29,988 nt of DNA from a bacterium (lineage in GTDB: Bacteria; Auribacterota; UBA3054; B51-G9): the NCBI GenBank assembly GCA_029933535.1, contig JAOZNZ010000003.1:1-29988 (forward strand), given 5' to 3'. The notes beneath the pieces are model-generated. The model had not been told where the DNA came from and made no database searches. It saw only the letters and a list, made by a program, of their open reading frames with translations. Positions 1 through 16,321 of the stretch are shown one piece after another; within the stretch, counting starts at the first letter, position 1; each line of letters opens with the position of its first letter. A program made the position numbers and the translations under genes.

Positions 1-1267
1 GGTTATTCATATCAAGTTCAACGATTTCATTTTGTTGTAAATTTTTCAGAGAGGATTTAACACGTAAATAATTTTCTGAAAATCCTTCCCAATAGCCTTT
101 ATTATTATGCTCAATTAAAACATTAAGTTTTTTATTTACGAATTTCTGACGACATTTTTTTGCCGCTGCATCTGCACATTTAGTCAGCCTTTTTTCCCTT
201 TTTTTAATTTCAGACGGCTGAATAAATAAATTTTTCATCTTTGCAGCTGCCGTGCCTTCGCGAGGGGAGTACTGAAAAATATGTACTTTTGCAAAAGGTA
301 TTTTTTCAACCATTTGAATCGTTTTTTCAAAATCCTCCTCTTCTTCTCCCGGCATTCCAACAATAGCATCTGTAGTAACCACAGCGTTATGAACAATTGA
401 TAAAAACCTGTCTGCAGCTTTTTCAACATCTGCCGCGAAAATTTTTCTGTTCATTAATTTTAATACTTTATCGCTGCCGCTTTGCAGGGGAATATGAATG
501 TGAGGCATCAATGTTTCGCTTTCCGCGAAAATTTTGCAAAGATTTTCTGTTATAGCTATAGCTTCAACTGAACTCAATCGAATACGCGGAACAATATTTA
601 AATCGCTTATTTTTTTTAAAATATCAGGAAGAAAATCAGATTTATAATTATATGCCGCAATATTAATTCCGGTAACAACTACCTCTTTTACATCATTTTC
701 CGCAAGTATTTTCAGTTCATCAATAATCGTATCTAAAGAAACACTTCGTGCTCTGCCGCGTGCGTAAGGAATTTTACAATACGCGCAAAAGCGATTACAA
801 CCGTCTTGAATTTTTATAAAAGCGCGTGTTCTATCTGTTGGGAGGTAGAGATTATTATAAACATCCGGGTTATATTTTTTTTCAATAAGCAGCGAGCTTT
901 CTTTTAAAAAACTTTCAATTTCTGAAAAAATTTTTTCCGGGTTATCTGATTCGATTACTAAATCAATTTCAGGAATTTTTCTTAAGCTTTCCGCATCTGT
1001 TCTTGCATAGCAACCTGAAACGAATATTACTGCCTTCCGGTTATTTTTTTTAAATTTTCTGACAAATTTTCTTGCTGTAGCATCGGCTTGAGAAGTAACC
1101 GTGCAAGAGTTTAAAATGCAAATATCGACCAAACGCGGGTCAGAGACCCGCGTCCAGTCGTGCTTTTCAGCTACAGCGGCTATCTTTTCGCTGTCACACC
1201 AGTTTACTTTACATCCAAGTGTATGAATGTAAAAAGAATTCTTTATATTTTTTTTTTTGGCTGACAT
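1..1267 (-). CDS. mtaB: tRNA methylthiotransferase, MtaB/MiaB-like radical SAM enzyme (3' end runs off the window; absent from ORF track)
   Basis: Manual translation from ATG at 1267: MSAKKKNIKNSFYIHTLGCKVNWCDSE; radical SAM motif KIQDGCNRFCAYCKIPYARG; C-terminal EGFSENYLRV; no stop in the segments translated, including the last 60 nt. Confidence 0.85.
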   Translation of the reverse strand, partial: MSAKKKNIKNSFYIHTLGCKVNWCDSEKIAAVAEKHDWTRVSDPRLVDICILNSCTVTSQADATARKFVRKFKKNNRKAVIFVSGCYARTDAESLRKIPEIDLVIESDNPEKIFSEIESFLKESSLLIEKKYNPDVYNNLYLPTDRTRAFIKIQDGCNRFCAYCKIPYARGRARSVSLDTIIDELKILAENDVKEVVVTGINIAAYNYKSDFLPDILKKISDLNIVPRIRLSSVEAIAITENLCKIFAESETLMPHIHIPLQSGSDKVLKLMNRKIFAADVEKAADRFLSIVHNAVVTTDAIVGMPGEEEEDFEKTIQMVEKIPFAKVHIFQYSPREGTAAAKMKNLFIQPSEIKKREKRLTKCADAAAKKCRQKFVNKKLNVLIEHNNKGYWEGFSENYLRVKSSLKNLQQNEIVELDMNN

Positions 1268-1273
1268 AAATTA

Positions 1274-1344
1274 TAGTGTTCAAGGTGTCAGGTGTCAGGT
1301 TTTAACTAATAACCATTAACTATTAATTATTAAATATTAACTAT
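1274..1344. repeat. Two abutting heptamer arrays: CAGGTGT-type (1281-1302) and TAACTAT-type (1303-1344)
   Basis: CAAGGTGT CAGGTGT CAGGTTT then TAACTAA TAACCAT TAACTAT TAATTAT TAAATAT TAACTAT; fills the sat-mtaB gap and overlaps the sat stop. Confidence 0.85.
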
Positions 1345-2498
1345 TTCACGGAATTAATTAAAATTTCTGCTACTTCCGGTCGAGTAAATTCTTCAGTCAA
1401 AGGTTCTCCTTTATTTAACATTTCAAAAATCTGAGTGTCAGTGTAATAAATATGTTCTTCTATACTATGGGAACATGTTTTTTGCGAAACTATACTTCCA
1501 CATTTCTTACAATATACCATGTTTTCAAATAAAAGAGGGGTTATTTCCATCTCGTGCAACCCGAATTCTTTGAAAATTTCCTGGGCATCGTATGTTCCGT
1601 AATAATTTTTTACTCCTGCGTGATCTCTGCCTACAATAAAATGTGTGCAACCATAATTTTTATGGACAATAGCATGAAAAACCGCCTCTCTTGGCCCGGC
1701 ATATTTAACAGCGGAAGGAAAAACTGAAAGAACGACTCTGTTTTCGGGGTAGTAATTTTCTATTAAAGCATTATAGCTTTTCATACGAACATCAGCGGGA
1801 ACGTTATTTTCTTCTGTTTCACATACTAACGGATGAATAAGCAAGCCGTCACAAATTTCCAAAGCGCATTTTTGAATATATTCATGAGTTCTGTGAATAG
1901 GTCTTTTGGTTTGAAAAGCAACGATTTTTGACCATCCACGCTGTTCAAATTCGTGTCTTGTTTCCAGAGGTGTTAGTCGATATTCATTAAATTGGCTGCG
2001 TTGTGGAGTATTAATCACATCGATATCGCCACCGAGTAATACGTCTCCTCGTTTATTCATTAAGTAATCAACACCAGGATGATCAGTGTTTTTCGTTTTA
2101 TAAACAAAAGCGGCTTCTCTTTCTTTATTAACAATATATTTTTCCTGAAGGTGAAGAATGGCAATTAAATTTTCTTTTTCATCTTTCAAAGCAATTTGAG
2201 CGCCAACATCAAATTCATCAGCCTGATCCGGTGATACACCAAGAACAATCGGAAGTGACCAGGGCAACCCGGAAGTTAATCTCATATGTTCAATAACATG
2301 ATTATAATCATCACGACACATAAAACCTTCAATAGGACTCATAGCTCCGCAAGCTATCATATCGATATCAGAAAGTATTGAATTATCAACAATAACGCTT
2401 GGAAGTTCTTTAGATTTTTTTATCCAAAAGTCTCTTTTTTCTCTTGTAAGAGTACAATTTACGAGTTCCCCGCCGTGTGGCGCAATTTGATTGTGCAT
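1341..2498 (-). CDS. sat: ATP sulfurylase (Sat) family protein with non-canonical active-site motifs
   Basis: PHGGELV start, YAGPREAVFHA, KNYGCTHFIVGRDHAGV, CKKC..TCSH Zn site; QTKRPIHRTH replaces canonical QTRNPxHRAH; SD AAGGAG upstream. Confidence 0.85.
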   Translation of the reverse strand: MHNQIAPHGGELVNCTLTREKRDFWIKKSKELPSVIVDNSILSDIDMIACGAMSPIEGFMCRDDYNHVIEHMRLTSGLPWSLPIVLGVSPDQADEFDVGAQIALKDEKENLIAILHLQEKYIVNKEREAAFVYKTKNTDHPGVDYLMNKRGDVLLGGDIDVINTPQRSQFNEYRLTPLETRHEFEQRGWSKIVAFQTKRPIHRTHEYIQKCALEICDGLLIHPLVCETEENNVPADVRMKSYNALIENYYPENRVVLSVFPSAVKYAGPREAVFHAIVHKNYGCTHFIVGRDHAGVKNYYGTYDAQEIFKEFGLHEMEITPLLFENMVYCKKCGSIVSQKTCSHSIEEHIYYTDTQIFEMLNKGEPLTEEFTRPEVAEILINSVK

Positions 2499-2524
2499 TT
2501 TTTTTGCTCCTTTTTTGAATTTAT

Positions 2525-4096
2525 TTATTTTTGTTCTTCTCTATAATGACATCCTTTACTACGGGCATTGCGAATTGCACCATATAAAACGGCTCTTGCT
2601 GTTTGTAATCCGTTTCTTAATCCTATGATTTCATCGCTCATTGCAACCCGTCGATAAAAAGTTTCTACTTCTGTTTGTAATTCACGTAAAATTCTCTGTG
2701 CTCGTCGTAATCTTCTTTCGCCCCGAATTAAGCCCACATAATTCCACATAGTGTGTCTAATAATCATCCAATCCTGATTTAACAAACTAATATCTACTTC
2801 TTCATTTTTTTCAATCCATGGTGCGATTTTGGGAAAGAAAAATTTTCTTTTTTCACTTACTTTCTTTACTATATCTTTTCCTGTCCATATACCCCAGACA
2901 AGTGCTTCAAGTAAAGATGTACTGGCAAGTCTGTTTGCTCCATGAACTCCTGTACAACTAACTTCACCAACCGCACGCAATCTCGGAACGGAAGTTTGGC
3001 CTAATTTATCAACCATTACTCCTCCGCAGGCATAATGAGCTGCCGGAACGATAGGAATTGGCATTTTAGTAATATCGATTTTATGTTCAAGACATTTTTT
3101 ATAAATTGTAGGAAATCTCTTTTTCAGCCATTCGGCAGGTTTATGTGAAATATCAAGATAAACAAATGACTGGTGATTTTTTTGCATTTCATTATGAATT
3201 GCCCTTGAAACAATATCCCGTGGTGCTAGTGAACCGAGTTTATGATATTTTTTAGCAAATTTTTCTCCATCAGCATTTATTAAAATTCCTCCTTCGCCTC
3301 TTAAAGATTCCGTAATTAAAAAATTATCGGCATCTGTGCCATAAAGAGTTGTAGGATGAAATTGTACAAATTCCATATTCGCAATTCGCGCACTTGCGCG
3401 TAAAGCCATAGCGAAGCCGTCTCCTCTTGATCCTGCACCATTTGTTGTATGAAGGTAAACTTGTCCCAATCCGCCTGTAGCGAGGACTGTTTCTTTTGCG
3501 AGAATTTTAATTGTTTTATGAGGAGTTTGTTTTAAAACATAAGCTCCAACACAAGTAATAGGACGATATGTATCAGCAAAATTTAAAGAATGATGACTTG
3601 TTGTTATTAAATCTATAGCTGTTGTCTTTGTAAAAACAGTTATATTTTTATGCTTCCTTATTTGTTTCCAAAGCGCTTCAGCTATACTTTTACCCGTGCT
3701 GTCAGAACAGTGAATAATTCTTTCTACACTATGCCCGCCTTCCCTGGTTAAGTCAAATTTACCTTTTTTATTTTTATCAAATAATACACCGACTCTATCA
3801 ATCAAAAAACTTTTTACAAGTTTTGGTCCTTCTTTTACAAGATGTCTTACCGCTTCAGGATTACATATTCCGTCTCCTGCGCTTTCAATATCATTAACTA
3901 AAGATTTCTGCGAATCTTTAATTCCTTTATAAATAATTCCGCCCTGTGCACGTGTAGTTGAAGATTTTTCAACATCTTTACCACTTGTCAATATTATTAC
4001 TTTACAACCACTGTCAGCAGCGGTTATTGCGGTAGTGCATCCACCAATACCGGTACCAATAATTAAAATATCTGTTTTAAAAGTTGTTTTCATCAT
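2525..4096 (-). CDS. nadB: L-aspartate oxidase
   Basis: FAD motif IIGTGIGG, AQGGI, TREGGHS..RIIH, QFHPT, TESLRGEG, LAPRDIVSRAI, GVHGANRLAS; start moved from 4183 to ATG 4096 (or 4093) because of the promoter at 4106-4134. Confidence 0.92.
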   Translation of the reverse strand: MMKTTFKTDILIIGTGIGGCTTAITAADSGCKVIILTSGKDVEKSSTTRAQGGIIYKGIKDSQKSLVNDIESAGDGICNPEAVRHLVKEGPKLVKSFLIDRVGVLFDKNKKGKFDLTREGGHSVERIIHCSDSTGKSIAEALWKQIRKHKNITVFTKTTAIDLITTSHHSLNFADTYRPITCVGAYVLKQTPHKTIKILAKETVLATGGLGQVYLHTTNGAGSRGDGFAMALRASARIANMEFVQFHPTTLYGTDADNFLITESLRGEGGILINADGEKFAKKYHKLGSLAPRDIVSRAIHNEMQKNHQSFVYLDISHKPAEWLKKRFPTIYKKCLEHKIDITKMPIPIVPAAHYACGGVMVDKLGQTSVPRLRAVGEVSCTGVHGANRLASTSLLEALVWGIWTGKDIVKKVSEKRKFFFPKIAPWIEKNEEVDISLLNQDWMIIRHTMWNYVGLIRGERRLRRAQRILRELQTEVETFYRRVAMSDEIIGLRNGLQTARAVLYGAIRNARSKGCHYREEQK

Positions 4097-4105
4097 ACAA
4101 AAATT

Positions 4106-4134
4106 ATTATACAATATAGTGAAATAATCGTCAA
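4106..4134 (-). promoter_or_regulatory. Sigma70-type promoter for nadB
   Basis: TTGACG (4134-4129) - 17 nt - TATAAT (4111-4106) on the minus strand. Confidence 0.65.
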
Positions 4135-4291
4135 GTAAGTAAAAAAAGTATGTATTTATTGTATAAAAATTGAAAAAATTCATTATAAATTACTTTTCGT
4201 TTTTTTAAAATCAATATATTGTAGTTAAAGTATAGTATTATACATTATAAATGATAAAGTTTTTTAATAATTACCCTTTTATGAAACACAC

Positions 4292-4380: not shown

Positions 4381-4569
4381 TGTGAATAACTTTAATTTTT
4401 TTGTTTTTTAAGTTGTGGGGACACTTAAATAAATCTGTGATTCAATCACCAAAAAAATTGTTATAAGTTACTTTAAATAGCTACTTTAAGTTCAGAATAG
4501 GTTTACTTATTTATATTACTATTATTGTATATTCGGTATTTAAATTTATTGTGGATAACTTGTGCATAA
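4381..4569. promoter_or_regulatory. DnaA boxes upstream of dnaA (left part of oriC / autoregulation)
   Basis: Exact TTATNCACA matches on the minus strand at 4381-4389, 4550-4558 and 4561-4569; the last overlaps the predicted GTG start. Confidence 0.75.
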
Positions 4570-5920
4570 CTTGAGGAAAACTGTGACTGATTTTGAAATA
4601 TTATGGGGTGATGTGCTTAGTGTGGTAAAATCGTCAACCAATGAAGCGATTTTTCAATCCTTTTTTTCTGTTGTTCATCCTTTATTGTATAAGGATAACA
4701 AATTCATTATAAAAGTTGATTCTCCACTCGTTGCGGATTGGATTAAACAAAAATATTTTTCTATAATAGAAAAATCGTTATCTAAATCTTTAGGTACAAA
4801 TGTTCAACTTGTTATACAATGCGAAGGCATTCAGGAAAATATTATCGCTCCTGTTACCAAAATTTCTAGAAAAAAGAAAAAAATTAATATTACTAATTTA
4901 AATTCTAATTTTCTTTTTAATAACTTTATTGTTGGTAATTCTAATCAAATGGCCCATGCAGCCTCTTATGCAAGCGGACAAAATCCTGGTCATGCATATA
5001 ATCCTTTATTTATTTATGGTGGAGTTGGACTTGGTAAAACACATCTTATGCAGGCGATTGGCCACGCTGCAATTGCAAAAAACAAGGATTTAAATGTTCT
5101 TTACATTTCTTCTGAAAAATTTTTAAATCAATATATTGATGCTCTTCAAACCAAAAGTTTATCAAAATTCAGAGAATATTATCGTTCAAATGTGGATATA
5201 CTTCTTGTAGATGACATTCAATTCTTATCGAAAAAAGAGCGAACTCAAGAAGAATTTTTTCACACATTTAATGCATTACATAATGAAGGTAAACAAATTG
5301 TAATGACAAGTGATAAATCTCCACATGAACTTAAAGGTATTGAAAATAGACTCGTTAATCGTTTTGAATGGGGAATGGTAGTTGATATTCAATCACCTGA
5401 TTTTGAAACGCGAGTTGCTATTATTCATAAAAAATTGGAACAATACGGTCAAAATTTTGATGAGGATATCTGCTTCTATCTCGCAAATAAAGTTAGAAAT
5501 GATGTAAGAAAAATTGAAGGAGCTATAATAAAATTACTTGGTTATGCATCTATACAAAACGAGCCTGTTAATCTTGAAATGGCAAAAGAGTGTCTAAAAG
5601 ACTATGTATCTTCTCATACTGTTACATTAGATTTAATACAAAAATCTGTCGGAGAATTTTTTGATCTTAGAATAACCGACCTGAAATCAAGCAGAAGACC
5701 TAAATCTATATCTTATCCAAGACAACTTGCAATGTATTTGTGTCGGAATATGACTAATAGTTCTTTAACTGAAATTGCACAATCTTTTGGTGGTAAAGAT
5801 CATACTACAGTTTTGTATGCATGTCGAAAAATTGAAAGTCAAAAAAGCGAAGATGAAATAATAAGACAACAACTTTTAACACTTGAAAAAAACATAATAG
5901 GGAGTGTAAAAATGATGTGA
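4562..5920 (+). CDS. dnaA: Chromosomal replication initiator DnaA
   Basis: YNPLFIYGGVGLGKTHL Walker A, LLVDDIQF Walker B, QEEFFHTFN, domain IV GGKDHTTVLYA; start codon uncertain (GTG 4562 or 4583). Confidence 0.97.
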   Translation: MHNLRKTVTDFEILWGDVLSVVKSSTNEAIFQSFFSVVHPLLYKDNKFIIKVDSPLVADWIKQKYFSIIEKSLSKSLGTNVQLVIQCEGIQENIIAPVTKISRKKKKINITNLNSNFLFNNFIVGNSNQMAHAASYASGQNPGHAYNPLFIYGGVGLGKTHLMQAIGHAAIAKNKDLNVLYISSEKFLNQYIDALQTKSLSKFREYYRSNVDILLVDDIQFLSKKERTQEEFFHTFNALHNEGKQIVMTSDKSPHELKGIENRLVNRFEWGMVVDIQSPDFETRVAIIHKKLEQYGQNFDEDICFYLANKVRNDVRKIEGAIIKLLGYASIQNEPVNLEMAKECLKDYVSSHTVTLDLIQKSVGEFFDLRITDLKSSRRPKSISYPRQLAMYLCRNMTNSSLTEIAQSFGGKDHTTVLYACRKIESQKSEDEIIRQQLLTLEKNIIGSVKMM

Positions 5921-8020: not shown

Positions 8021-8092
8021 ATTCGTGTTAATTTGTGTCCATTAGTGGTAAAAAATATTATTTAATCCGTGATAATCCGTGAAATTCGTGTC
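8021..8092 (+). repeat. Two 9-10-mer arrays of the ATTCGTG/ATCCGTG type
   Basis: ATTCGTGTTA ATTTGTGTCC ATTAGTGGTA (8021-8050); AATCCGTGAT AATCCGTGA AATTCGTGTC (8064-8092), overlapping the next start codon. Confidence 0.7.
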
Positions 8093-10664
8093 AAAAATAT
8101 TTTTATTTCTTCTTTTTATTTTTTCAGCAAATATTTTTGCTTTGAATTTAAATGAAAATTCTATTACCGGGAAAACAGCTTCAGCATTAAATTACGCATT
8201 TAAAAATCTTGGTATTTCCCGTAGAAGTCTTGGATTTGAAAAAGCCTGGTATAAAGATGAATTCCGTCTGCCAATTCAGGAAAAATGTCTTGCAGATCCT
8301 GTTTTTCCAATTGAAATGAGTGATAAACTGATTTCTAATATTGATAATTTATCCCCTCTACAAATTATTTCTGAAATTACATCTGTTCCTTACTCAGAAA
8401 AAAATTCAACTAATTCAATTGAAAATCTGATTCAAATCCGCGAAAAATTATTTGTTTTTTTTCAAAAATATCAAAACAAAAAACTTTATAATTATTTGAT
8501 TTTTAATTTTAGTAACGTTAAAGAAAAAAGAAACGAATTCGATAATCTTATTAATGCAGGCGCAAATAAACAAATTATTAATAATTTGATTAATCAAGCT
8601 GATAATTATTTACTTCAGGAAGAAAATATTAATCAATATATTTTTACTGAATTATCAAATTTTTCAGTTTCTCAATGTATTTCCTATGTTTATGAAGTTA
8701 TTAATAATGCAAACAAAATAACTTTTGATGATAAATTTATAAAATTAAAAGATGATTTTATAAAAAAAGGTATCCAAATAGGTTCTTATGGCAGAGATGT
8801 TTATACAAATAAAAATACGTGGCTTATTATTGATCCGGGGGGCGATGATATTTATGATAATTTATCAGGTTTTGCTTCAATTGAAATTAATCAACCACTA
8901 AAAATTATTATTGATTTTGACGGCGATGATGTTTATAAAAATGATTTTTCTTTTGGCGCAGCTTGCGGTATTTTTGGAATAAGTGTTTTAATTGATAAAA
9001 ATGGAAATGATAGTTATAAAAATGGATCTATGGCTCAGGGAGCAGGATTGGGTGGAGTAGGAATTTTAATGGATTCTAATGGTGATGATTTTTATTCTGC
9101 TGATAATTATTCCCAGGGCGCGGGATTTTTTGGACTTGGTGCGCTTATTGATAATAACGGTAATGATAATTTTAATGTTAGTTCTTATGGTCAGGCTATT
9201 GGCTTTACAAAAGGTTATGGTTTTTTAATTGATAATAATGGAAATGATATTTATTATGCCGGAGGTGTTTATCCGGATATCGGAAGATATGATAATAATT
9301 ATATTTCTATGAGCCAGGGAATAGGTATTGGTAAACGTCCTTTTGCTTCCGGGGGTATTGGAACCCTAATTGATAAAAACGGGAATGATACATATATTGC
9401 TGATGTTTTCGGTCAGGGATCTGCTTATTGGTTTGGGTTAGGTATGCTGATCGATAAACGTGGTCAGGATACTTACAATTTATATGAATATGGACAAGGT
9501 GCAGGTATTCACATGGGTTGCGGGATTCTTGCTGATGGAGAAGGTAATGATGTCTATACTTTGAAAGGTGGAATTGGTCAGGGAGCCGAACATGATTTTT
9601 CGGTTGGTCTTCTTAGAGACTATTCAGGAAATGATAAGTATAATGGAAATATTACCGTTCAGGGAGGAGCAATAAATAACGGCGTTTCTTTCTTAATTGA
9701 TGATAAAGGCAATGATTGGTACAGTTCCTGGAGCAATATTTCTCATGGTGATGGAGAATGGGCTGAAAGGCGAGATTTTGGTTCTATAGGATTTTTACTT
9801 GATTTATCCGGAAAAGATAAGTATGGAATAAAAGAAACAAATAATTTTAAAAAAATAAACGGCTTAATAGGCATTTGTGTTGATTTCCCCACTAATTTTA
9901 TCTATACAAATAAAATTAATTTAATTAATAAAAAATTAGCAATAAATAAATTTGAAAACTGCTACCCTTATTCACTTAAATATAAATCACCCAAAATTGA
10001 AAATGTTAATTTTGAAAGATTATATCGAATGGCTATTGAATCTTCATATTCAAAAGAAAAAAATATATTATCAGAAAAAGCTGTAAATAAATTAAAACAA
10101 CTCGGACCAAAAATTATTCCTTTACTCGCTAAAAAAATCGAACATCCGTGTAATCAAAGCAGTTATGCAATTCAGAATATAATTATGTCGTGGAAAACTA
10201 ATGCAATTCCAATGTTACTGGAAGCATATAATTCAACAACAAATCAACGGGTTAAACGTGTATTAATATATTTTATGGGATTAAATCGTGACAACAGAAT
10301 TGAACCTGCTGCAGTTAAAGAATTAAATGATAATAAAAACAGATCAATAGCTTTGTGGGCACTTGGAAATTGTGGAGTTACTCAATCAATTGAATATGCA
10401 GAAAAATATTTATTTGAAGGTGAAACTGAAATGACACGTGTCCGCAGCGCGGGAATTTTAAGAAAAGTAGGTTCAACGAATGAAACAGCTATGTTGGTTG
10501 ATATTTTGAAATTACCGGATGATAATATGTGGAATTTAAAATGTGCAGCGGTTAAAGCATTGGAAAAGCAAAGCAATACGGTTATTTCAGTAATAAAAGA
10601 AGAGTGGGAAGAATTACCTGAAGACTCGAAAGCACTGATAAACAGTGTTTTTAAGGTAAATTAA
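8079..10664 (+). CDS. Large secreted hypothetical protein with 12 LxDxxGxDxY repeats and a C-terminal HEAT-like helical region
   Basis: Signal peptide-like MKFVSKIFLFLLFIFSANIFA; repeats such as VLIDKNGNDSY, FLIDNNGNDIY, TLIDKNGNDTY; C-terminal RSIALWALGNCG and VRSAGILRKVG. Confidence 0.75.
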   Translation: MKFVSKIFLFLLFIFSANIFALNLNENSITGKTASALNYAFKNLGISRRSLGFEKAWYKDEFRLPIQEKCLADPVFPIEMSDKLISNIDNLSPLQIISEITSVPYSEKNSTNSIENLIQIREKLFVFFQKYQNKKLYNYLIFNFSNVKEKRNEFDNLINAGANKQIINNLINQADNYLLQEENINQYIFTELSNFSVSQCISYVYEVINNANKITFDDKFIKLKDDFIKKGIQIGSYGRDVYTNKNTWLIIDPGGDDIYDNLSGFASIEINQPLKIIIDFDGDDVYKNDFSFGAACGIFGISVLIDKNGNDSYKNGSMAQGAGLGGVGILMDSNGDDFYSADNYSQGAGFFGLGALIDNNGNDNFNVSSYGQAIGFTKGYGFLIDNNGNDIYYAGGVYPDIGRYDNNYISMSQGIGIGKRPFASGGIGTLIDKNGNDTYIADVFGQGSAYWFGLGMLIDKRGQDTYNLYEYGQGAGIHMGCGILADGEGNDVYTLKGGIGQGAEHDFSVGLLRDYSGNDKYNGNITVQGGAINNGVSFLIDDKGNDWYSSWSNISHGDGEWAERRDFGSIGFLLDLSGKDKYGIKETNNFKKINGLIGICVDFPTNFIYTNKINLINKKLAINKFENCYPYSLKYKSPKIENVNFERLYRMAIESSYSKEKNILSEKAVNKLKQLGPKIIPLLAKKIEHPCNQSSYAIQNIIMSWKTNAIPMLLEAYNSTTNQRVKRVLIYFMGLNRDNRIEPAAVKELNDNKNRSIALWALGNCGVTQSIEYAEKYLFEGETEMTRVRSAGILRKVGSTNETAMLVDILKLPDDNMWNLKCAAVKALEKQSNTVISVIKEEWEELPEDSKALINSVFKVN

Positions 10665-15046: not shown

Positions 15047-16321
15047 TTATTTAACTTGTTTGCCTTTAGCTTTTTTCTCATTCTTTTTATTGTAAGTAAG
15101 AGAAATACTGCTTGGAATAATCCATACCTGCCCGCCTTTTTCGGTATCCTGAGAATTATTACCGGTTAAAACAAGAGTAACAGGAAGCATAATAGCAAGG
15201 TTTTTACCATTTGGAGAAGTGTCGGTTAGCATTGTTGCGCCGCTAATGTCAGATTTTGAAGAATTAAAAGTAAAGTCGAGATATTTATTACCTTTTTTAT
15301 TTTTTGTTTTAAGAGTTAACTTCTTTTTCCCATTATTATCCAATTTAAGAACTAACTTTTTTGTTTTAACTTTATCTTCGCTTCCATCATCAGGAACAAA
15401 AGCTATATAATCACCAATCATAAATGAAACATCCAGATTTCCGAGATTATCTAGATCCGTACCATATTCTGAAATATTAACGCTGCCTTTAATTGTAATT
15501 TTATCTTTGTTAGCTTTATTAAATCTTTGAGAAAATTTTGCTTTTTTAATTTCAATTTTCGTATTATCAGGAACATTAACCGGTGTATTAGCGGAAAAAG
15601 AACTCATAGCTTGTATTTCAGGATCGCTTGAAGCAACCATTAGTTTTGTTCTTACAATTTGAGGAGTTCCATCAAAAGATGATGCATTCCAAGCTACAGC
15701 TCCGGCTGCATTTTCTAAATTTAGTTCTTCAATAATTGTACTTGATGCGGTTTGAAGCCAATTAAGCACAGTATCAAGTCCGGAATAGATATGAGAAGTA
15801 GTTTTTGCGTCATTTAACCTTGCGGCAAAGCCAAGAAAAATGGAATCTTGTTCAAACATCAAAGTTTGATTTGCGATATTAAAACTTCCTATGTCATTTG
15901 TTTCTGTCTGCATTACTCTTGAATCTACAGTATAGCTCATTTTGAGTTGAGTATCTTTTCGCATTGTATAAACAAGAGTTTGATCGAGATTGCTATTAGA
16001 GCCTTCAATGTATGAAACGGTATAAACGTAAAAATTTGAGGAAGAATCTCTGCCATAACCGGTAAACATTTTTCTTTGAGCAAAATTATTATAAAGTTTC
16101 TCTACACCAAGAATATAATCCATGTCATGTAAACTACTGTCATAATGCAAATTAACGCCTACAAGACTTACATGATTAGTTCCCGGAACGGGATCATATT
16201 CAACAAGACCTACGTCTCCATCTCCATCAACTTCGATAGTAATATTTCCGTTATTTAAGGAAGCGGAAAAAGCAAAACCTGTTATAAGCAGAGATAAAGT
16301 AATAATAATTTTTTTCATCAT
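15047..16321 (-). CDS. Secreted hypothetical protein with Lys-rich C-terminal domain
   Basis: Signal peptide-like MMKKIIITLSLLITGFAFSA; own promoter and terminator; no family recognised. Confidence 0.75.
   Translation of the reverse strand: MMKKIIITLSLLITGFAFSASLNNGNITIEVDGDGDVGLVEYDPVPGTNHVSLVGVNLHYDSSLHDMDYILGVEKLYNNFAQRKMFTGYGRDSSSNFYVYTVSYIEGSNSNLDQTLVYTMRKDTQLKMSYTVDSRVMQTETNDIGSFNIANQTLMFEQDSIFLGFAARLNDAKTTSHIYSGLDTVLNWLQTASSTIIEELNLENAAGAVAWNASSFDGTPQIVRTKLMVASSDPEIQAMSSFSANTPVNVPDNTKIEIKKAKFSQRFNKANKDKITIKGSVNISEYGTDLDNLGNLDVSFMIGDYIAFVPDDGSEDKVKTKKLVLKLDNNGKKKLTLKTKNKKGNKYLDFTFNSSKSDISGATMLTDTSPNGKNLAIMLPVTLVLTGNNSQDTEKGGQVWIIPSSISLTYNKKNEKKAKGKQVK

Follow-up and report, generated by a model that had tools for sequence, protein, structure and literature searches.

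A gene in the 29,988-nucleotide window analysed here (positions 1 to 29,988 of contig JAOZNZ010000003.1, assembly GCA_029933535.1, from a bacterium assigned to Auribacterota; UBA3054; B51-G9) encodes a homolog of the homo-oligomeric ATP sulfurylase (Sat) in which several active-site motifs are substituted. With a probability of about 0.5, we propose from comparative evidence that its product (P0001) is a stand-alone sulfurylase-like pseudoenzyme, which would bind a nucleotide, a partner in sulfur-nucleotide metabolism or both. Strong purifying selection acts on the fold, the N-terminal domain, the Zn site and the structural core; the loops that bind sulfate and pyrophosphate (PPi) have lost their special constraint. 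Conservation of the fold, N-terminal domain, Zn site and much of the adenosine pocket, release of the phosphosulfate- and PPi-binding residues, and the presence of a working alternative enzyme, CysDN, together form a pseudoenzyme signature. What keeps the Sat-like protein in place is probably a non-catalytic or altered job, with CysDN activating sulfate.

Active-site substitutions in a preserved sulfurylase fold

The gene is an intact open reading frame (ORF) of 385 codons that follows a strong ribosome-binding site, as an earlier note based on the DNA letters had described. Its product matches Pfam PF14306 (PUA_2; E 1.5e-50) followed by PF01747 (ATP-sulfurylase; E 6.3e-89) and exceeds the curated NCBIfam cut-offs for NF003166 (495.5 bits versus 387) and TIGR00339 (395.4 versus 322.95). 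The AlphaFold2 (AF2) model, with pLDDT 92.8 and pTM 0.91, has the three-domain ATP sulfurylase fold and was superimposed by Foldseek on the solved enzyme 8A8G with a TM-score of 0.93 and a root-mean-square deviation of 1.7.

The motifs quoted in the earlier note were all found in place (Table 1; residues are given in query numbering throughout), and the Sat consensus against which they had been read holds: R198, N199, G226, K229, D232, M264, R265, R279, S353, G354, T355 and R358 each show at least 97% conservation across 103 canonical homologues. By sequence comparison, four of the six motifs are altered in the query, which carries H326N as a further substitution, and all six are altered somewhere across the query clade. 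The query matches homo-oligomeric Sat in HxxH and GRDHAG and departs from it in QxRN, the GxxKxxD lid and SGTxxR. In the Allochromatium vinosum enzyme, sulfate is held by the Gln and Arg of QxRN and the backbone NH of the GRDHAG Ala, and the α-phosphate by the Thr, Arg and Asn of QxRN; the QxRN Asn, both HxxH His and the SGTxxR Arg bind PPi and stabilize the transition state, and the lid Asp of GxxKxxD pairs with the RNP Arg (PMC3779200). The query thus lacks residues for sulfate binding (the QxRN Arg and its lid Asp partner) as well as for PPi binding and transition-state stabilization (the QxRN Asn and the SGTxxR Arg). Gln196, Thr197, both HxxH His, GRDHAG and the Zn ligands are kept, the last two in agreement with the earlier note.

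Table 1 Features of the Sat-like gene and its neighbours in the window.
Feature	Position	Strand	Remarks
mtaB (tRNA methylthiotransferase)	2..1267	(-)	downstream of the Sat-like gene; passes TIGR01579
Sat-like coding sequence (P0001)	1341..2498	(-)	intact 385-aa ORF, stop codon included
YTDTQIF, residues 352-358	1425..1445	(-)	replaces (I/L)SGTxxR: S353T, G354D, R358F; PPi-binding Arg lost
Zn site C330, C333, C342, H344 (CKKC...C.H, residues 330-344)	1467..1511	(-)	three Cys invariant in every group
GRDHAG loop, residues 290-295	1614..1631	(-)	canonical in query
VHKNYG, residues 278-283	1650..1667	(-)	R279H
AVKYAGPRE, residues 263-271	1686..1712	(-)	M264V, R265K; AGPRE kept
Lid loop LVCETEENN, residues 224-232	1803..1829	(-)	replaces GxxKxxD: G226C, K229E, D232N
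RNP loop and HxxH, FQTKRPIHRTH, residues 195-205	1884..1916	(-)	canonical FQTRNPxHRAH; R198K, N199R, both His kept
N-terminal PUA-like domain, residues 5-163	2010..2486	(-)	Pfam PUA_2 and invariant-position alignment
Shine-Dalgarno AAGGAG	2507..2512	(-)	8 nt 5' of the Sat-like ATG
nadB (L-aspartate oxidase)	2525..4093	(-)	directly upstream of the Sat-like gene, 26-nt gap; partner across the order

That the gene is a sequencing, assembly or binning artefact can be considered effectively ruled out. Fragmentation of the source metagenome-assembled genome (MAG) into 1046 contigs and a size that is unusually large within its genus would favour such an explanation. Against it, proteins that are 95-99% identical and share these motifs were recovered from several independent ENA/JGI assemblies as well as from two further MAGs, one of which is labelled Chlamydiota bacterium, and contigs from public runs of different studies span the gene with 0-1 differences in one run and at about 97% identity in another. 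Recurrence of the motifs in all these sources also disposes of the sequencing errors that the earlier note had named as a possible refutation, and the homologs sharing QTKR and lacking SGT that it suggested looking for were found among the same-genus MAGs and the independent metagenomes. DNA of the gene was detected in marine-sediment, hydrothermal-vent and cold-seep metagenomes, with seven runs from four studies containing at least 72% of its words. A cold-seep metatranscriptome yielded one 151-nt contig matching window positions 2314-2462 with 3 differences; DNA carry-over is possible, and this single contig is too little to warrant a claim of transcription.

Purifying selection and active-site change across the order

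In a maximum-likelihood tree, one 41-row clade (SH-aLRT 100) holds canonical and degenerate forms of Sat, with short-branched canonical sequences, including those of family f5, next to several degenerate subclades. All five families searched within the query's order (f1 to f5) have the block dnaA|nadB-sat-mtaB, which also occurs on metagenome contigs carrying the fully canonical in-clade protein P0010 and the very degenerate P0008. By tree and gene order, then, the window gene is a vertically inherited orthologue of canonical homo-oligomeric sat.

To define invariant positions, 93 canonical Sats lying beyond the clade served as the reference. At 24 active-site motif positions, in-clade canonical controls deviate at none, compared with 16 in f1, the query clade (counting positions that deviate somewhere within it), 10 in f2, 10 in f3, 12 in f4 and 18 in a further group, X. 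The active-site motifs are thus changed in four of the five families, and the set of substitutions differs family by family: QTKRP, CETEENN, HKN and TDTQIF mark f1; QTHNPILRSH and GYDHAGW mark f2; FHTHNP and GRNHAD mark f3; in f4 the lid alone is changed, except in one heavily altered member; and group X has HRAD and VDRD/VDKN. The Sat of f5 is canonical. Family-invariant positions of the N-terminal domain are all kept in f1, and variation in f2, f3 or group X is confined to five of them; the three Zn Cys, AGPRE, KNYGC-H-I and other core residues are invariant in every degenerate group.

Within the nine f1 sequences (identity down to 73%), 12 of 29 active-site positions are variable, compared with 35% of positions elsewhere (p=0.55), whereas in the canonical in-clade controls only 3 of 29 vary, compared with 45% elsewhere (p=3e-4), these p-values being indicative only since the sequences are related and non-independent, which lessens their weight in the argument for a pseudoenzyme. 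In group X, 23 of the 29 positions are variable. Even the residues kept by the query are altered in close relatives. HxxH is changed in four of the nine f1 rows, to YRTH/YKTH in P0006, its near-identical copy L006 and P0008, and to HRTQ (H205Q) in P0007. The same-genus genome G001 (L006/P0006) combines H202Y with D292N, so that its GRD loop reads GRN (GRNHAG), and P0008, a deeper metagenome protein of the f1 clade, has H202Y, R291S and D292N, its loop reading GSN (GSNHAG). Replacement of the HxxH His in mammalian 3'-phosphoadenosine 5'-phosphosulfate (PAPS) synthases abolishes sulfurylase activity (PMC6607087), and another report describes the same outcome in human/murine PAPSS when either His is mutated (PMC11697783).

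An observation apart concerns residues 281-315, over which L006/P0006 is 91% identical to the distant P0008 and 74% to the query; outside this stretch it is 86-97% identical to the query, except at the termini (80% and 74%). The segment resembles a recombination tract that includes GRN and 'EEH'. Convergence had been considered for the 'type B' states (residues 202, 292 and 301-303) shared by P0006/L006 and P0008, and was rejected for 281-315, where recombination fits better.

The gene evolves under strong constraint. Among three same-genus genomes the ratio of nonsynonymous to synonymous substitution (dN/dS, NG86) is 0.056-0.073 for the Sat-like gene, compared with 0.09 for nadB, 0.12 for mtaB and 0.05 for dnaA; with a dS close to 1 in the most distant pair, the ratios are approximate. 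Across the order, the identity of the Sat-like protein (56-68%) is similar to that of CysD (60-63%) and above that of MtaB (39-43%). None of the Sat copies from the 17 order genomes carrying one has an internal stop; an apparently split or pseudogenized sat in G009 was rejected as such, being due to a run of 12 N in the record with no frameshift.

These data leave very little room for a redundant gene in slow decay, in which CysDN would have taken over, selection would have relaxed and no function would remain. Coexistence of two sulfate-activating systems and the differences in catalytic motifs between families are what such decay would produce, but the dN/dS below that of nadB and mtaB, the intact reading frames and the order-wide identity effectively rule it out. 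The earlier note had argued against simple decay and had proposed a look at purifying selection; strong selection was indeed found, with the same substitutions in relatives. As relatives lacking the catalytic His, Arg or Asp share this strong purifying selection, the preserved function appears to need no sulfurylase catalytic apparatus. The sequence data give indirect evidence against selection for catalysis of ATP + sulfate → adenosine 5'-phosphosulfate (APS) + PPi.

An unlikely, though credible, alternative is that the protein is still an ATP sulfurylase with a rewired site, with Lys198 binding sulfate and Arg199 making the PPi contact once made by Arg358. We likewise regard it as rather doubtful that such an enzyme works, perhaps slowly, beside CysDN, for example by supplying APS kinase in its stand-alone form (CysC). 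The curated Sat cut-offs are exceeded, stand-alone CysC is kept in all families, and the strong purifying selection would suit a working enzyme. Yet the changes extend to the lid Gly, Lys and Asp, R265, R279 and H326; His202, His205, Arg291 or Asp292 has been lost in relatives under the same selection, the same-genus G001 among them; the active-site positions of the clade are no more constrained than background; and the canonical orthologues within the larger clade show none of the 24 deviations.

Another possibility, which we consider distinctly unlikely, is a neo-functionalized nucleotidyltransferase or hydrolase acting on another anion or nucleotide, with K198, R199, C226, E229, N232, K265, H279 and D354 setting its specificity. 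The low dN/dS would agree with this, as would the near-invariance within f1 of the lid CETEE(N/K/E)N. The HxxH and GRD residues, needed by any reaction of the superfamily, nevertheless vary within the clade; the substitutions differ per family, unlike a convergence on one new chemistry; and no neighbouring gene suggests a new pathway. The earlier note had proposed an altered substrate or a non-catalytic role, for a possible pseudoenzyme or new nucleotidyltransferase. An altered or non-catalytic role remains likely, while the nucleotidyltransferase is disfavoured, given that relatives without the HxxH His or the GRD Arg or Asp are under the same selection and that active-site positions evolve no slower than others. 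There is little chance, in our estimate, that the remodelled pocket (Lys198/Arg199, an acidic Cys-Glu-Thr-Glu-Glu lid, Lys265, His279 and Asp354) has become a new site under selection, either active or ligand-binding, making the protein an enzyme of different chemistry or a sulfo-nucleotide sensor within a recurrent, undescribed class of stand-alone 'dead' Sat in several phyla.

Several observations on the site weigh against the pseudoenzyme. The query keeps Gln196, Thr197, HxxH and an intact GRDHAG, R198K is a conservative change, and Arg199, itself new, could stand in for the missing Arg358. In three lineages a basic 199 is paired with a non-basic 358, as if one positive charge were still needed in the PPi pocket; this pairing suggests that an anionic ligand may still be bound and leaves room for residual catalysis. 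Moreover, at eleven positions that used to be invariant, every one of the nine f1 members, down to 74% identity, has the same new residue. The states fixed in all nine include C226, E229, N232, K265, H279 and D354, which could mark a new constrained pocket rather than a dead one.

Sulfate activation in the genome and related inactive or degenerate proteins

The source genome (G000; 4.49 Mb, 1046 contigs, 78.7% complete) was searched for the second canonical sat that the earlier note had suggested looking for, and no other PF01747 gene was found at this completeness; a separate, complete CysD/CysNC route to activated sulfate is present. CysD and a CysN-CysC fusion (CysNC) are encoded on contig C145, CysH adjoins sulfite reductase on C436, and a stand-alone 200-residue CysC lies on C791. 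The absence of APS kinase and APS reductase genes reported in the earlier note therefore holds for the window and does not extend to the genome. Identity of CysD among the three same-genus MAGs is 90-97%; four of the five families yielded a CysD, and stand-alone CysC occurs in all five, including f5 with its canonical Sat. Since f5 is included, the redundancy of Sat and CysDN predates degeneration, and it is a plausible reason why catalysis became dispensable.

As a separate observation, two APS kinases, the CysN-CysC fusion and the stand-alone CysC, occur throughout the families of the order and together with Sat and CysDN amount to two parallel sulfate-activation sets.

Placing CysDN in the same cell as the Sat-like protein rests on MAG binning and on its presence in three same-genus MAGs at 90-97% identity, and this is a further weakness of the pseudoenzyme argument. 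So is genome size: the same-genus MAGs measure 2.4-2.9 Mb at 64-81% completeness versus 4.49 Mb for G000. Strain mixing or an inflated bin is possible; GC content in G000 is unimodal at about 38%, and the stated contamination is 0.84%.

We compared the Sat-like protein with three known systems. Homo-oligomeric Sats (EC 2.7.7.4; Methanothermococcus thermolithotrophicus 8A8D/8A8G, A. vinosum 4DNX, Thermus thermophilus 1V47) have the same three-domain architecture, length and fold, and the protein is about 40% identical to 8A8G. It shares HxxH, GRDHAG, AGPRE and the Cys3His Zn site with them and is a direct orthologue of the canonical Sats of sister families, but differs in R198K, N199R, the CETEENN lid, R265K, R279H, H326N and TDTQIF. 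Unlike in these systems, the window gene is unlinked to cysC or aprBA and coexists with CysDN.

A described precedent in this fold is the N-terminal sulfurylase-like domain (SLD) of the Thiobacillus denitrificans and Entamoeba histolytica APS kinases, which lacks activity and is thought to stabilize or regulate the kinase oligomer, its role being still unclear (PMC13213808). In both cases the ATP-sulfurylase fold is retained, with activity-defining residues missing from the SLD and four of six motifs altered in the query, and the organism has a separate working sulfurylase. Gay, Segel and Fisher reportedly described the T. denitrificans SLD-APS kinase in 2009 (structure 3CR8), and the AF2 model aligns with this structure in Foldseek with a TM-score of 0.75-0.78. 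Unlike the SLD, the Sat-like protein stands alone at 385 residues without a kinase domain, the two APS kinase genes being on other contigs; it is closer to working Sats (about 72% identity to canonical orthologues) than to 3CR8 (about 25%); HxxH and GRDHAG are intact in the window copy; and its gene lies in the nadB-mtaB block, not beside a kinase.

The fungal ATP sulfurylase (Penicillium chrysogenum 1I2D/1M8P) has a C-terminal APS-kinase-like allosteric domain. Also within this pathway, this domain is a pseudoenzyme that persists as a regulatory, sulfo-nucleotide-binding module. It differs in being kinase-derived, fused and of proven ligand binding, whereas the Sat-like protein is sulfurylase-derived, free-standing and known by sequence.

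In the scheme we favour, that of a stand-alone pseudoenzyme, an orthologous Sat would have been released from selection for sulfate activation and kept as a folded, unfused protein. The fold would underlie the retained job, probably together with the adenosine-nucleotide pocket, given that FQT, His293, the Ala294 backbone and AGPRE are kept. The protein would most likely bind an adenine- or sulfo-nucleotide or a partner and act as a non-catalytic regulator or scaffold. Our most specific guess is that it could be a partner in trans of the stand-alone CysC, mirroring the SLD that T. denitrificans and E. histolytica APS kinases carry in cis; no gene-context evidence links it to CysC, which tells against this version of the scheme.

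Previously described inactive sulfurylase folds are only those fused to APS kinase (PMC13213808), and our literature search found no paper on stand-alone inactive Sat proteins. We judge the odds to be about even that the window protein resembles this known inactive module and is new in being unfused and, by sequence, traceable stepwise from a working orthologue. A wider survey of 142 diverse representatives from other lineages, drawn from a library of 1.84 billion proteins, contained about ten stand-alone proteins of roughly 370-420 residues that deviate at 8-16 of 19 key positions. In one of these from an unrelated lineage, the Sat-like P0190 (L063:4001-5113), 16 of the 19 positions are changed, and its gene is flanked on a 509-kb contig by a CN-hydrolase gene and by cysH with a uroporphyrin methylase (TP_methylase) gene. 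These survey copies and the context of P0190 indicate that degenerate stand-alone Sat is recurrent and, at least sometimes, lies within sulfur assimilation.

Matches to PF01747/TIGR00339 are all annotated as 'sulfate adenylyltransferase' in genome annotation and metabolic reconstructions. A whole order of marine-sediment bacteria, assigned to Chlamydiota, carries a Sat match that is probably not a sulfate-activating enzyme, and counts of 'sat' can mislead sulfur-cycle inference, because degenerate stand-alone copies also occur in other lineages. At one orthologous locus, under strong purifying selection, a series runs from the working enzyme through loss of the lid and of the RNP loop to loss of HxxH/GRD. 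The locus therefore offers a clean setting in which to ask which second function allows an enzyme to outlive its chemistry.

Gene neighbourhood and other elements of the window

The placement of the gene between nadB and mtaB, given in the earlier note, was established by passes of TIGR00551 (499.4 versus a cut-off of 452.75) and TIGR01579, respectively. In relatives mtaB overlaps or abuts the sat stop codon, and on the P0008 contig the overlap is 11 nt. A complex prediction for MtaB with the Sat-like protein, prompted by this translational coupling, gave a score of 0.00, which bears neither way. Same-phylum sat genes outside the order have no nadB or mtaB neighbours. The neighbourhood gives no hint of a new function because the same block holds canonical sat in relatives, and the synteny, inherited from the canonical state, was rejected as a functional clue. 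Also rejected was the idea that the neighbouring nadB encodes an AprA-type flavoprotein of a sat-aprBA module: it passes the nadB model, nadA and nadC lie on other parts of the genome, and no TIGR02061 (AprA) match was found in the genome. A search for a TLC nucleotide transporter gave no match, a negative that carries no weight because the controls were silent as well.

The gene for the degenerate group X protein P0022 (HRAD, VDKN; L053:5001-6155) follows recG and a gene for an FG-GAP protein, away from the nadB-mtaB block, and may be a relocated or paralogous copy.

Two long ORFs, at window positions 8079-10664 (+, 861 residues) and 15047-16321 (-, 424 residues), have no Pfam or NCBIfam match at E<=1e-5. 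The nadB ORF can be extended upstream by 30 codons (window 4094-4183; MNFFNFY...) from the start MMKTTF shared by orthologues, and this extension is probably untranslated. At window positions 4549-4582, in the AT-rich spacer between the divergent nadB and dnaA, TTGTGGATAAC is repeated three times; it contains the complement of the DnaA-box TTATCCACA and overlies the listed GTG start of dnaA. The repeat is likely an element of dnaA autoregulation or of oriC, and the true dnaA start may lie downstream.

Two heptamer arrays, AGGTGTC x2.6 and TTAACTA x6.3, are found at the spacer between sat and mtaB (window 1283-1345). Contigs from public runs pile up there to a summed depth of 136-1423 versus about 10-40 on the flanks, which marks the heptamer repeat as common in these metagenomes.

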